From the NCBI RefSeq assembly GCF_988242995.1, contig NZ_OZ547043.1: a stretch of DNA of 64,000 nucleotides; one strand, written 5' to 3'. Position numbers and translations under genes: made by a program. This document shows, piece by piece, positions 18,361 through 52,704 of the stretch. The notes under the pieces were generated by a model. The model was not told where the DNA came from, searched no databases, and saw nothing but the letters and a program-made list of their open reading frames with translations. Position 1 is the first letter of the stretch, and every line of letters starts with the position of its first letter.

Positions 18361-18452
18361 TCGGCTTGTACTGGCGGATGGGGCATAAACGCTTCATCCG
18401 CCCTGGACAAATGGTACGAGCGGTAGGCCTGATAAGACGCGTTATGAACTGC

Positions 18453-19412
<960 letters not shown>

Positions 19413-20021
19413 TCATTCTTCATCTCTTCCGGCGTCATGTTTGCCTCGTTTTCATGGGTATCATCAGAACGGGTCATGCTTTTCTCCTTCCTGCGCCTGA
19501 TAAAGGCCTCATTACCAGATTTGCGGTAGCCTTTTATCCAGTTTTTAACCGTGTTGTGGCTGGGAATGTTAAACCGGGCAGCTACCCGGGGTAGAGACTC
19601 AGAATGCCCGAGAGCATAAAGAACCACGCAAAGTTTATCTTCAGGAGAATAGCTACGCTTGTGTCTGCAATCCAGTGCCCGAGGACCGTGAAGAAGAAAA
19701 AGATTAATCCAGTGTGAGAGGCTGGTGTGAGAAAGTTGAAAGAGTTTTGCCGTAGAAATGATGCCTGCATGACCAGCCAGGTAATGATTTACAGCGGCAA
19801 GTTTTACTTCAAATGAATGTTTCATAAACTGCACCTTCAGATGTCAGATTATGTCCAACATTTGGGGTGCAGTTCATTAAGCGTCGCATCAGGCATTCCT
19901 TCAGACTCCTCCGAATCCCTAAGTATTTCCAGCCATTCCCGCGCTTTTCATCTTCTGTCTGATAGCTGCTTTTCTCCTTCGCTTGCATGATTGGCATAAC
20001 AGCAAAGAAGGAGGTGTTCCC

Positions 20022-21823: not shown

Positions 21824-22535
21824 GTGCACAGAAAACCCCCAGCTAGGCTGGGGGTTCCGGAAAGCTTTCAGCTTTGAGCCAGTTATTAAAACCCCTTTTG
21901 ATTTGTTAAAACACTTTGCGGTCTGGCAACTGCAAGTGTCAAACAAGAAATCAAAAGGGGGTCCCAATGGGGAACGAAAAGAGCTTAGCGCACACCCGAT
22001 GGAACTGTAAATATCACATAGTTTTTGCGCCAAAATACCGAAGACAGGTGTTCTACAGAGAGAAGCGTAGAGCAATAGGCAGTATTTTGAGAAAGCTGTG
22101 TGAGTGGAAAAGCGTACGGATTCTGGAAGCTGAATGCTGTGCAGATTATATCCATATGCTTGTGGAGATCCCGCCCAAAATGAGCGTATCCGGCTTTATG
22201 GGATATCTGAAAGGGAAAAGCAGTCTGATGCTTTACGAGCAGTTTGGTGATTTGAAATTCAAATACAGGAACAGGGAGTTCTGGTGCAGAGGGTACTACG
22301 TCGATACAGTGGGTAAGAACACGGCGAAGATACAGGATTACATAAAGCACCAGCTTGAAGAGGATAAAATGGGAGAGCAGTTATCGATTCCCTATCCGGG
22401 CAGCCCGTTTACGGGCCGTAAGTAACGAAGTTGGATGCAAATGTCAGATCGTGTGCGCCTGTTAGGGCGCGGCTGGTAAGAGAGCCTTATAGGCGCATTT
22501 GAAAAACCTCCGGCTATGCCGGAGGATATTTATTT
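21824..22535 (+). mobile_element. IS200-like element (IS200/IS605 family), copy A, about 712 bp
   Basis: identical to copy B at 50427..51138; left-end hairpin aaacccccagc-taggc-tgggggtt; single Y1 transposase ORF; boundaries from where the two copies diverge (+/- 3 bp). Confidence 0.88.
21967..22425 (+). CDS. tnpA: IS200/IS605-family Y1 (HUH) transposase TnpA
   Basis: 152 aa from ATG; HUH-like motif YHIVFAPKYRR and catalytic-Tyr region YIKHQ. Confidence 0.9.
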   Translation: MGNEKSLAHTRWNCKYHIVFAPKYRRQVFYREKRRAIGSILRKLCEWKSVRILEAECCADYIHMLVEIPPKMSVSGFMGYLKGKSSLMLYEQFGDLKFKYRNREFWCRGYYVDTVGKNTAKIQDYIKHQLEEDKMGEQLSIPYPGSPFTGRK

Positions 22536-47430: not shown

Positions 47431-48084
47431 TTAATCTGTCGCTTCTCGCCATTCGCCGTTGGCAAGATTATCCAAAGAGTAATCACCCATCGCATAGCGA
47501 ATCAGTCGCAGCGTGGGGAAACCAACATGGGCGGTCATGCGGCGCACCTGGCGATTACGTCCTTCATATAAGGTGATCTTCAGCCAGCTGGTGGGAATAC
47601 TTTTGCGTTCACGAATTGGTGGATTCCGCGGCCATAACCACGCGGGTTCGTCAACCAGCTCTACGCCTGCGGGCAGGGTAGGGCCATCATTTAAGGTTAC
47701 GCCATTGCGCAAGGCTTCAAGTGCGTCTTGTGTGGGAATACCTTCCACCTGCACATAATAGATTTTTCCGGTGCGTTTACCCGGCTGGGTTAAACGCGCC
47801 TGCAACGCGCCGTTATTGGTCAGCACCAGTAACCCTTCGCTATCGCGGTCAAGACGACCTGCTGCATAAACGCCCTGAACCGGGATGAATTCTTTTAATG
47901 TTTTGCGTCCGGCTTCATCGGTGAACTGCGGAAGAACATCGTAGGGTTTATTGAACAGGATCACGCGCGTGGGCTGGTTTTCAGGTTTACGCCTGGTAGA
48001 ACGTTGCGAGCTGAATCGCTTAACCTGGTGATTTCTAAAAGAAGTTTTTTGCATGGTATTTTCAGAGATTATGAATTGCCGCAT
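47431..48084 (-). CDS. rluE: 23S rRNA pseudouridine synthase
   Basis: 217 aa; RsuA/RluE family with catalytic [11 protein letters not shown] motif. Confidence 0.9.
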
Positions 48085-48255
48085 TATAGCCTAATAACGC
48101 GCATCTTTCATGACGGCAAACAATAGGGTAGTATTGACAAGCCAATTACAAATCATTAACAAAAAATTGCTCTAATGCATCCGTATCGCAGGACGCAAAC
48201 GCATATGCAACGTGGTGGCAGACGAGCAAACCAGTAGCGCTCGAAGGAGAGGTGA

Positions 48256-49506
48256 ATGGAAAGTAAAGTAGTTGTTCCGGCACAAGGCAAGAAGATCACC
48301 CTGCAAAACGGCAAACTCAACGTTCCTGAAAATCCGATTATCCCTTACATTGAAGGTGATGGAATCGGTGTAGATGTAACCCCAGCCATGCTGAAAGTGG
48401 TCGACGCTGCAGTCGAGAAAGCCTATAAAGGCGAGCGTAAAATCTCCTGGATGGAAATTTACACCGGTGAAAAATCCACACAGGTTTACGGTCAGGATGT
48501 CTGGCTGCCTGCTGAAACCCTTGATCTGATTCGTGAATATCGCGTTGCCATTAAAGGCCCTCTGACCACTCCGGTTGGTGGCGGTATTCGTTCTCTGAAC
48601 GTTGCCCTGCGCCAGGAACTGGATCTCTACATCTGCCTGCGTCCGGTACGTTACTATCAGGGCACCCCAAGCCCGGTTAAACACCCTGAACTGACCGATA
48701 TGGTTATCTTCCGTGAAAACTCGGAAGACATTTATGCGGGTATCGAATGGAAAGCAGACTCTGCCGACGCTGAGAAAGTGATTAAATTCCTGCGTGAAGA
48801 GATGGGCGTGAAGAAAATTCGCTTCCCGGAACATTGCGGCATCGGTATTAAGCCGTGTTCTGAAGAAGGTACCAAACGTCTGGTTCGTGCAGCGATCGAA
48901 TACGCAATTGCTAACGATCGTGACTCTGTGACCCTGGTGCACAAAGGCAACATCATGAAGTTCACCGAAGGCGCGTTTAAAGACTGGGGCTACCAGCTGG
49001 CGCGTGAAGAGTTTGGCGGTGAACTGATCGACGGCGGCCCGTGGCTGAAAGTTAAAAACCCGAATACCGGCAAAGAGATCGTCATTAAAGATGTGATTGC
49101 TGATGCATTCCTGCAACAGATCCTGCTGCGTCCGGCTGAATATGATGTTATCGCCTGTATGAACCTGAACGGTGACTACATTTCTGACGCTCTGGCTGCA
49201 CAGGTCGGCGGTATCGGTATCGCCCCAGGCGCAAACATCGGTGACGAATGCGCCCTGTTTGAAGCCACCCACGGTACTGCGCCGAAATATGCCGGTCAGG
49301 ACAAAGTTAATCCTGGCTCTATTATTCTCTCCGCTGAGATGATGCTGCGCCATATGGGCTGGACTGAAGCCGCAGACCTGATTGTTAAAGGTATGGAAGG
49401 CGCAATCAACGCCAAGACCGTAACCTATGACTTCGAACGTCTGATGGAAGGCGCTAAATTGCTGAAATGTAGCGAGTTTGGTGATGCGATCATCAAGAAC
49501 ATGTAA
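48256..49506 (+). CDS. icd: NADP-dependent isocitrate dehydrogenase
   Basis: 416 aa; uninterrupted; C-terminus ...FGDAIIKNM differs slightly from the remembered K-12 e14-derived end. Confidence 0.96.
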
Positions 49507-49529
49507 TCTCTACATGTGTTAAATATTGA

Positions 49530-49560
49530 AACGGGCGTATAACACGCCCGTTGTTTTATT
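49530..49560 (+). terminator. rho-independent terminator of icd
   Basis: hairpin aacgggcgtat-a-acacgcccgtt followed by gttttattt. Confidence 0.7.
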
Positions 49561-49608
49561 TATGTGGATATTATTAATATCATGTCGAGAATATTTATAT
49601 GAAGACCA

Positions 49609-49932
49609 TTACTTGAGTCCATATGGGCATATTTTTATAATACAACTATTATGTAAACATTTATTTGTTATTTCGCTTTCTCCTGGAGGACACTCTTGAC
49701 TGCTTTTGAGTAAACTCCATAAATCCTTGTTGAATGGTGTGATGTTATAAATAGTAATAGGGTATTCTTTATCCTTAAAGATAATACCAGACTTAACCGG
49801 TGTAAATATACTTCCAGGAGTGAGAAATATAGTAGGTTGATACCAGATGATCATTTTCATATCACCCCATATGGCTGAAAAAGATATACCGCATGTAGGT
49901 TGAATTACCGTGTCAATTACTATCCACTTCAT
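49609..49932 (-). CDS. iraM: anti-adaptor protein IraM (stabilises RpoS by inhibiting RssB)
   Basis: 107 aa beginning [19 protein letters not shown], matching remembered IraM; AT-rich locus. Confidence 0.75.
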
Positions 49933-50377
49933 TTGTTATGTCTTATCCCACGGTATTTAATATGGTTCATTAGGATGTTTATTTCTTGATTTTGCATATG
50001 AGTATATTACCCCCTCAAAAAACAAATTAATTAAAAATTAAAACCATTGTTTATATAAAACAAAATTTAAAGCAAGAAATCTCAATAGATATTAAACAAA
50101 ATGAGATTTAGTGAAAACATTAAATTATTCACTTCGTTTTAGATTTGTTTAGCTAAAATGTTATACATTCAAATGACTGAACATCCTGTAATTAAAACAT
50201 AGCCTTTATACTACTTTGTGCCAATTTGCTAAACATTATGGTTGGCCTTTTTATATAACGATAATGACGAATATAAGCATGACATGAGAATAAGGTTTCA
50301 ATTTTTTAGTTATATAGGAATGGTTTAACCCATTCCTGGCTAAAATACATATAACCGGATGATGACTAAACCAAAAC

Positions 50378-50426
50378 ACATGTGCGTTAAGTATTGAAAC
50401 GGGCGTATGGCACGCCCGTTGTTTTT
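50378..50426 (+). repeat. second, imperfect copy of the icd 3'-end terminator segment (direct repeat of 49512..49557)
   Basis: acatgtgcgttaagtattgaaacgggcgtatggcacgcccgttgttttt versus acatgtgttaaatattgaaacgggcgtataacacgcccgttgtttt after icd. Confidence 0.8.
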
Positions 50427-51138
50427 GTGCACAGAAAACCCCCAGCTAGGCTGGGGGTTCCGGAAAGCTTTCAGCTTTGAGCCAGTTATTAAAACCCCTT
50501 TTGATTTGTTAAAACACTTTGCGGTCTGGCAACTGCAAGTGTCAAACAAGAAATCAAAAGGGGGTCCCAATGGGGAACGAAAAGAGCTTAGCGCACACCC
50601 GATGGAACTGTAAATATCACATAGTTTTTGCGCCAAAATACCGAAGACAGGTGTTCTACAGAGAGAAGCGTAGAGCAATAGGCAGTATTTTGAGAAAGCT
50701 GTGTGAGTGGAAAAGCGTACGGATTCTGGAAGCTGAATGCTGTGCAGATTATATCCATATGCTTGTGGAGATCCCGCCCAAAATGAGCGTATCCGGCTTT
50801 ATGGGATATCTGAAAGGGAAAAGCAGTCTGATGCTTTACGAGCAGTTTGGTGATTTGAAATTCAAATACAGGAACAGGGAGTTCTGGTGCAGAGGGTACT
50901 ACGTCGATACAGTGGGTAAGAACACGGCGAAGATACAGGATTACATAAAGCACCAGCTTGAAGAGGATAAAATGGGAGAGCAGTTATCGATTCCCTATCC
51001 GGGCAGCCCGTTTACGGGCCGTAAGTAACGAAGTTGGATGCAAATGTCAGATCGTGTGCGCCTGTTAGGGCGCGGCTGGTAAGAGAGCCTTATAGGCGCA
51101 TTTGAAAAACCTCCGGCTATGCCGGAGGATATTTATTT
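50427..51138 (+). mobile_element. IS200-like element (IS200/IS605 family), copy B, about 712 bp
   Basis: sequence-identical to copy A at 21824..22535; same orientation. Confidence 0.88.
50570..51028 (+). CDS. tnpA: IS200/IS605-family Y1 (HUH) transposase TnpA
   Basis: 152 aa; identical translation to the copy-A transposase. Confidence 0.9.
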   Translation: MGNEKSLAHTRWNCKYHIVFAPKYRRQVFYREKRRAIGSILRKLCEWKSVRILEAECCADYIHMLVEIPPKMSVSGFMGYLKGKSSLMLYEQFGDLKFKYRNREFWCRGYYVDTVGKNTAKIQDYIKHQLEEDKMGEQLSIPYPGSPFTGRK

Positions 51139-51347
51139 ATAAATATGTTAACCGCTATAAAATAACGTATCAAAAGTCAAGTAATCACATTTCAAATATC
51201 AATTTGATAGTATTGGCCTGGTGATTATTTATGGGTGGCAATAAAAAGATAGTATATATCATCCATAGGGATAGTCTCTGCACTTTTATTTCCATTATGC
51301 TAATGTCTTACTGAATTATGAAGCATTTCTTAAGCTTCCAACTTTAG

Positions 51348-51752
51348 CTAGATTAATGGTTTATTGTTTTCTACATCTTCAATATATAAAAGCGTATTAT
51401 CAATGGCGTAGTAACTGCGTTTGTTATGATTAACATCAGTAACCCACCGGAAAACGCCCGCGTCTGCCAGTGTTGAACAGTATTCCCGAAATGTTGATTT
51501 TCCGCAAATATGAAGCAATGCGGCCTCTTTTATTTTAGCAGGGTTCTTGGTCGTACTAACTTTTAACAGGTTCCTGGTTCCTCTTAATAACAAAACCGTG
51601 TCATCGTGAGTAATAATTCTGATGTTATCCGTAGCCAGATAATAAATGTAATGTGCAATACGGTGATGTTTTAATTCTGAATAAAACCAGGAGAAGTTTT
51701 GCTCTTTTCTCACTTGCTCAAACATCTTTTGAAAAACAACAACCTGATCCAT
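51348..51752 (-). CDS. ycgX: DUF1398-family protein YcgX
   Basis: 134 aa; position between iraM and bluR. Confidence 0.7.
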   Translation of the reverse strand: MDQVVVFQKMFEQVRKEQNFSWFYSELKHHRIAHYIYYLATDNIRIITHDDTVLLLRGTRNLLKVSTTKNPAKIKEAALLHICGKSTFREYCSTLADAGVFRWVTDVNHNKRSYYAIDNTLLYIEDVENNKPLI

Positions 51753-51972
51753 CAGGATAATAACCTCTTGTTAGTTGTGAGACTGCGTAGTGTGCACGAT
51801 CGGTTTTACCACTTCAATCTGGTCTGTCCTTTGGCTGTGATATGTACAAAGTGTGAAAGGGGGATTACCTGAATTCTCCCGGTGAGCATTTTGCAACGGA
51901 CCAGCTCCGGTACAAACGCTGTTGTGGGTTCAGATTATAAGATTCTGTCTAAGGGGCGGGATAAAGGTAAAA

Positions 51973-52704
51973 TTAGGGGGCATGAAAGATGACTTTATAA
52001 CCTTGCTCACCCCAGTGTTGTAAAAGTTCGTTTTGCCTTCTCGTTGGTGCCATGCCTGTCCAGACAATCAATGTTTGCGTTGGGAACAGTTCCGGGCGCG
52101 GCGATTCAATGGGATCAGCAAGAACAGAAATGTGCCATCCTGACAATGATAAACGCCATGCTTCCAGCCACAATCGTGCTCTCTCTTCAACATTCCACGC
52201 CATCAGAATGGCTTCTTTACCGGGCTTACGGCGCATTTCGAAAAGTGAGGCTGCTGCGTATTCAATTAATGCGCCGTCAAACATACTGCTCATAATGCGG
52301 GAGGTGTTGTGATCAAGCACGAGACGCTGACGAACAGGAAGGTAAACATGATTAATCAATTGATCTACCGGGTACTCTCGACCCAGTGAAATAATTCTCG
52401 CGCGTAGTTTGGCAGGATTAGCCATACGAAGAATTGACATCATCTCTTCTTGCAGGCGGCTCCAGTCATCTTCCGTATCCTGGCTGGTGGTTTCCAGTAA
52501 TGCTTTAACTTTGCCTACAGGGACGCCATTACTTATCCAACGCTTGATCTCTTCGATGCGTTGTATGTCTTCTTCATCAAAGAGTCGGTGTCCGCCTTCA
52601 CTGCGCTGTGGTTTTAACAAACCGTAGCGGCGTTGCCAGGCCCGGAGAGTGACAGGATTAATCCCGCAACGTTCAGCAACATCACCAATGCTGTAATAAG
52701 CCAC
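51973..52704 (-). CDS. bluR: MerR-family transcriptional repressor BluR
   Basis: 243 aa; N-terminal Mer[33 protein letters not shown]. Confidence 0.88.

Follow-up and report, generated by a model that had tools for sequence, protein, structure and literature searches.

The 3' end of icd, the gene for NADP-dependent isocitrate dehydrogenase in Escherichia coli, is a familiar entry point for temperate phages, and its use by the prophage e14 and by phages of the phage 21 type, which bring a substitute for the end of the gene, is already known and textbook matter. The bacterial attachment site (attB) of the cryptic prophage e14 was reportedly described in icd of E. coli K-12 by Hill, Gray and Brody in 1989. 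For both e14 and the phage-21-type phages, the integration point is where the final 165 nucleotides (nt) of icd begin. Both supply a replacement 3' end and terminator, and since these are phage-borne the gene stays functional after integration. SOS induction leads to e14 excision, and K-12 derivatives that have lost e14 exist and are commonly used. The position of the e14 attB in icd and the restoration of the gene by means of icdC upon excision have been summarised (PMC6379469), and lambdoid prophages of the phage 21 or NC-SV type have also been described to integrate at icd (PMC12803456). This attachment site serves e14 as well as phage-21-type prophages, which are far more frequent, so that a lack of e14 describes the site incompletely. 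Here, we analyzed the icd region of a 64,000-nt stretch of DNA (NCBI RefSeq assembly GCF_988242995.1, contig NZ_OZ547043.1), hereafter the window, for which an original prediction, made from the sequence alone, had described an icd gene free of e14. We read this locus, with a probability of roughly 0.93, as the ordinary unoccupied prophage attachment site at icd in a non-K-12 E. coli.

The following features define the gene and its attachment site in the window:

48256-49506, plus strand: icd, NADP-dependent isocitrate dehydrogenase, an intact open reading frame (ORF) of 416 codons encoding 416 amino acids

49342-49559, plus strand: unoccupied attB region, comprising the final 165 nt of the gene together with the terminator, delimited by alignment with the left and right prophage junctions of K-12 (attL and attR), phage 21, Lambda_2E9, phage D2 and CFT073 attL

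49530-49552, plus strand: intrinsic-terminator-like hairpin of icd with 9 pairs (6 of them G-C), followed by the T-run GTTTTATTT, from a terminator scan

The icd frame is full-length and unbroken, contains an Iso_dh domain (Pfam PF00180, E=5.5e-92 in a profile search, residues 29-412) and is predicted to encode an active NADP-dependent isocitrate dehydrogenase. The protein is 100% identical to that of AST215, BEC1-S17-ESBL-09 and CFT073 (annotated as WP_000444487.1) and differs from K-12 Icd by two amino acid changes, at residues 398 and 414. The hairpin downstream of the gene has a homologue in the phage 21 copy that carries a terminator annotation. The attB segment is the part that e14 and phage-21-type phages bring as a substitute copy, and such a substitute 3' end is visible in the comparisons with K-12 and CFT073. 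In the window it starts at 49342-49352 with the 11-nt ATGCTGCGCCA, which is the same in K-12 attL and attR. The bacterial left arm (…GCTGAGATG) runs directly into a right arm of bacterial type, ATGCTGCGCCAT… (…CGCCAT…), which is the attB configuration, and is contiguous with a single 3' end of icd, with the terminator and with the chromosomal flank, iraM. The 165-nt segment occurs once in the window, with no duplication into an attL copy and a separate icdC, and the second match to the icd 3' region is limited to a terminator module of 46-48 nt. In this arrangement icd keeps its own 3' end and terminator, so that attB is free for the integrases of e14 and of phage-21-type phages.

A BLASTN comparison of the whole window with K-12 MG1655 1143001-1225000 led to the same picture. 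Collinearity extends over K-12 1149030-1223564, e14 (K-12 1196425-1211412) being the one large missing block, and window position 49557, equivalent to K-12 1196424, joins straight to K-12 1211413 (icdC) onward. The K-12 side of this alignment ends at 1196424 with the icd 3' end and terminator carried by e14, which are homologous to those of the window. The e14 interval itself gave zero BLASTN matches within the 64 kb. Additionally, none of 21 e14 proteins, nor the integrase (Int) and excisionase (Xis) of phage 21, had a TBLASTN match in the window at E<=0.01, and no phage-21-type integrase or excisionase lies directly 3' of the icd terminator, where the ORFs are iraM and small ORFs. No RNA resembling the e14 small RNA C0293 was found in an Rfam scan of 47500-52500. 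All these data confirm the observation of a prophage-free icd. The original prediction that icd is uninterrupted, with no e14 at it, was thus borne out in the window by the complete 416-codon frame with its own terminator, by both searches and by the junction, and the e14 junctions are absent in the comparison with MG1655; its gene order (icd, terminator, iraM, an IS200-like copy, ycgX) was also right, apart from the small genes ymgK and ymgL, which it had left out. It had further stated that integrase, excisionase and phage genes are missing, which stands for integrase, excisionase and structural genes and has to be amended for the products of iraM and ycgX, since IraM (PHROG 4407) and YcgX (PHROG 413) have lambdoid homologues.

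In order to place the window among other strains, site states were counted in 5,426 complete E. coli genomes, using for the empty junction a 701-nt query (icd 3' end, terminator and iraM 3' end) that was scored when at least 80% of it was covered in one place. The empty icd-iraM junction is contiguous in 3,025 genomes (~56%), the CFT073-type junction, where a phage-21-type integrase comes after icd, occurs in 1,660 (~31%) and the K-12 icd/e14 attL junction in 283 (~5%), 278 of them at an identity of at least 99%; the remaining genomes have something else at icd. An empty attachment site is therefore the majority state in the species and tells little about a strain. Because so few genomes carry e14, more than half share the empty junction and e14 can excise, its absence is nearly uninformative as strain evidence, would not by itself exclude K-12 and is unfit as a lineage marker. 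The best 40 genomes listed for the 701-nt query (99.1-99.4% identity) were all prophage-free at the junction (40/40). The closest complete genomes share 99.0-99.2% identity with the window over 25 kb, with none in the collection above 99.2%, and identity to MG1655 is 97.2-98.7% in long blocks, over 62 kb. This divergence, together with a different icd 3' allele (13/165 mismatches) and insertion sequences that have no counterpart in the corresponding MG1655 stretch, shows that the source is not K-12. The suggestion in the original prediction that the source lies outside e14-carrying K-12 lineages holds as far as a non-K-12 origin is concerned, on these grounds; the absence of e14, on which it had been based, does not carry it.

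Nothing contradicts the reading of icd as an empty site. It is limited by the following points. The e14 negative covers the 64-kb window, and e14-like DNA may lie elsewhere in the genome. Divergence from K-12 icdC is 7.9% in the last 165 nt of the gene, compared with 26 differences (2.4%) from K-12 icd in the first 1086 nt, which is a 3.3-fold excess (Fisher p=0.0008), and this 3' segment resembles phage-borne copies. Lastly, what speaks for a relic prophage around iraM and ycgX is homology and base composition only. Alternative histories of the locus concern the sequence beyond the terminator and the end of icd itself.

Beyond the terminator the window has the following features:

49609-49932, minus strand: iraM, encoding an anti-adaptor protein of 107 amino acids, an ORF annotated as iraM in matching genomes

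50192-50236, minus strand: ymgK, 14 amino acids, identical to K-12 YmgK by genome comparison

50378-50425, plus strand: second icd terminator module, terminator-like, with a hairpin at 50398-50420, from local alignment, pattern search and terminator scan

51185-51295, minus strand: ymgL, 36 amino acids, four amino acids off K-12 YmgL by genome comparison

51348-51752, minus strand: ycgX, encoding a DUF1398 protein of 134 amino acids (Pfam PF07166, E=1.1e-47)

Outside the insertion sequence found here, GC content is 25-39% from 49560 to ~51900, compared with ~50% in icd, and the AT-rich island begins at 49560, exactly where the homology to the phage attachment regions ends. IraM, which differs from K-12 IraM by seven amino acids, matches PHROG 4407 (E=6e-49) and has homologues of 62-64% identity in 45 phage records, mostly of Shiga toxin 2 (Stx2)-converting phages, where the iraM-like gene sits between stx2B and a nanS-like esterase gene on the strand opposite to its late-region neighbours. 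YcgX matches PHROG 413 (E=1.3e-41), and its YbcV-like homologues (44-45% identity) are found in lambdoid phages between the genes for lysis and terminase, again on the strand opposite to the late-region neighbours. Furthermore, the terminator module of icd at 49512-49557, made up of the terminator and the flank preceding it, returns at 50378-50425 as a direct repeat (46/48 positions aligned, one 2-nt gap) that brackets iraM and ymgK, its second copy lying between ymgK and ymgL. A pattern search of the window, where 0 would be expected, found these two copies and no further ones. K-12 has the repeat as well (1212444-1212492), and its origin could lie either in what remains of an old attR or in a small, mobile terminator module. 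The homologues of IraM and YcgX, the AT-rich island and the phage-like icd 3' end point to earlier phage traffic at this known hotspot, and from homology and base composition we infer that the stretch from iraM to ycgX is old, domesticated lambdoid-phage cargo. It is not specific to this strain, because it is arranged identically in K-12 and occurs in the other E. coli strains that were compared. We also searched 50101-50382, ahead of the second hairpin, for a degraded second copy of the coding 3' end of icd; it aligned with a score of 15, compared with a shuffle mean of 16.5, and no icdC-like pseudogene is present.

A more specific history would make iraM and ymgK, and possibly ycgX, the degraded remains of an ancient lambdoid prophage at this same site, with the second terminator as the ancestral icd 3' end, that is, an old attR. 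The exact coincidence of the island boundary with the end of the attachment homology is consistent with it, as are the terminator repeat flanking iraM and ymgK and the occurrence of iraM-like and ycgX-like genes, in opposite orientation to the late region, inside real lambdoid phages. However, no icd coding similarity precedes the second hairpin, no integrase, attachment arm or structural pseudogene is left, and ycgX lies beyond that hairpin, so that a single relic does not account for both iraM and ycgX. As K-12 shares the arrangement, any event that formed such a relic would also be older than the divergence of the compared strains. For these reasons, the K-12 sameness, the missing icd remnant and the position of ycgX, we hold this history to be possible but doubtful. 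A wider version, in which the icd site is an old phage graveyard, an ancestral prophage left iraM and ycgX behind as domesticated accessory genes of lambdoid type, the second terminator is the ancestral icd end and the present icd 3' allele is perhaps phage-derived as well, seems unlikely to us. If true, it would mean that the RpoS anti-adaptor IraM came into E. coli via the icd attachment site. We found no relevant publication of the relic idea in the literature on iraM, ycgX and prophages.

The end of icd itself was compared as well. Its final 165 coding nt and the next 53 nt of the window were aligned to other copies, with the following mismatches:

AST215 (empty site): 3 in 165 coding nt, 0 in the next 53 nt

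BEC1-S17: 2 in 165 coding nt, 0 in the next 53 nt

Phage 21: 6 in 165 coding nt, 5 in the next 53 nt

Lambda_2E9: 6 in 165 coding nt, 5 in the next 53 nt

CFT073 attL: 8 in 165 coding nt, 2 in the next 53 nt

Phage D2: 11 in 165 coding nt, 5 in the next 53 nt

K-12 icdC: 13 in 165 coding nt, 1 in the next 53 nt

K-12 e14-borne copy: 18 in 165 coding nt, 17 in the next 53 nt

As the comparison with the first 1086 nt shows, the attachment segment is a local hotspot of divergence, with an allele and an encoded C-terminus of phage-21-like type. The C-terminus, …GDAIIKNM, is shared with the phage-type copies and with CFT073, in which a prophage supplies the 3' end. Raised variation at the icd 3' end through phage-borne replacement was reportedly described by Wang, Whittam and Selander (1997). 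Given this divergence and the resemblance to phage copies, the site may not be pristine. One way to explain it is that the site once held a phage-21-type prophage that was later lost, for example by homologous recombination between the duplicated 165-nt segments, which may have left the phage-derived icd 3' end behind, so that the uninterrupted gene would be a phage-scarred mosaic. The smaller distance of the segment to phage 21 and Lambda_2E9 than to K-12 icdC (6 mismatches vs 13), the shared C-terminus and the 3.3-fold excess of divergence over the rest of icd all agree with such a loss. On the other hand, the 53 nt past the stop codon are of chromosomal type (0-1 mismatch to AST215 and K-12 icdC vs 5 to the phage copies), and the allele is common to ~155 records at an identity of at least 99.1%, the best 40 listed being without a prophage at the junction. 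Furthermore, a native allele of the lineage that was captured by phages fits equally well. Because the tail is chromosomal and the allele is found in prophage-free relatives, the direction of the icd 3' transfer is undecidable here, and we consider a lost prophage rather improbable as the explanation. The weakest alternative, a misassembled window from which a prophage at icd was collapsed out, is highly improbable, as we found no support for it, the clean attB junction has the same structure as thousands of complete genomes, and copies at occupied sites differ from each other (e.g. at 12/165 in K-12) while that of the window is at only 3/165 and 2/165 from those of the prophage-free relatives AST215 and BEC1-S17, respectively.

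On the reading of an ordinary empty site, the only recent mobile-DNA event in the interval is the insertion of an IS200C element just past the terminator-like hairpin between ymgK and ymgL, and the AT-rich stretch from iraM to ycgX beyond the terminator would be the old cargo described above. The element comprises:

50427-51135, plus strand: IS200C, 709 bp, an insertion relative to K-12 and AST215

50437-50560, plus strand: STnc490, the 5' untranslated region RNA of IS200C (Rfam RF01405, 144.6 bits)

50570-51028, plus strand: tnpA of IS200C (Pfam Y1_Tnp, E=5.2e-37)

STnc490 was the sole RNA match in the Rfam scan. The limits of the element were fixed against the empty site of AST215, with no target duplication. 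Elements of the IS200 group are ~700 bp long, are without terminal inverted repeats and have subterminal hairpins. The window copy, with a Y1 (HUH) transposase, a length of 709 bp, no target-site duplication and hairpins near both ends, belongs to this group of the IS200/IS605 family, and matching genomes annotate it as IS200C. A second copy in the window, at 21824-22532, is 100% identical to it over 709 bp and lies directly after a hairpin and T-run downstream of bhsA (…CCCCGCGACATGCCGTGTCGCGGGGATTTTT abutting GTGCACAG). TUM1886 and NMBU_W05E18 have IS200C at the same ymgK-ymgL site as the window, whereas in BEC1-S17-ESBL-09 the same 709-bp element, with 3 mismatches to that of the window, sits after the icd terminator, and NMBU_W05E18 has it at both hairpins. 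The sites examined were the 50398-50420 hairpin of the window, the one downstream of bhsA and, for BEC1-S17 and NMBU_W05E18, the terminator of icd (loci L001 5562-6270 and L010). All IS200C copies at these sites lie directly 3' of an intrinsic-terminator-like hairpin, with the left end of the element abutting the T-run, and the target of the copy next to ymgL was the second terminator module (50378-50425). This suggests that IS200C targets terminator T-tracts.

Some differences were also found elsewhere in the window and in its relatives. Between ndh and ycfJ, the window has an insertion of ~1.5 kb relative to K-12 (18405-19880) with two ORFs, of 176 and 240 amino acids, that resemble orfA and orfB of an IS3-family element. 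At 62229-64000 the K-12 collinearity stops at K-12 1223564, the start of the ycgI pseudogene; this final 1.8 kb has no match to K-12 1223565-1225000, its ORFs are repetitive, and it may be an intact version of the gene degraded in K-12. TUM1886 (L009 1903-2687) and locus L010 have a 1.5-kb insertion between rluE and icd that encodes DUF1493 and STM2901-family proteins, and the window is without an insertion of this type.

The biology of the locus is ordinary and the finding matters little beyond annotation, where the region should be labelled as an intact icd with free attB and an IS200C insertion. The observations on the island and on the icd 3' end may interest researchers of prophage domestication, and are general to E. 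coli rather than particular to this window. Compared with e14 in K-12, gene and position are shared, and both the 11-nt ATGCTGCGCCA and the duplicated 165-nt K-12 segment align with window 49342-49506; the differences are that the window site is empty whereas in K-12 e14 (15.2 kb) separates icd from the icdC pseudogene, and that the window segment is at 13/165 from icdC and 18/165 from the e14-borne copy. With phage 21 (record OL657228) and lambdoid prophages of the NC-SV type the window shares the attachment region, the icd fragment and terminator of their phage attachment site (attP) aligning with 49343-49559 at 95.4-96.2% identity. In CFT073 an integrase begins ~100 nt past icd, whereas no integrase or excisionase follows the terminator in the window. 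The window also resembles the empty-site genomes AST215, Ecol_316 and GN25, which have the same order icd-iraM-ymgK-ymgL-ycgX-bluR at 99.0-99.4% nucleotide identity, AST215 differing in that it is without the IS200C that the window has between ymgK and ymgL.

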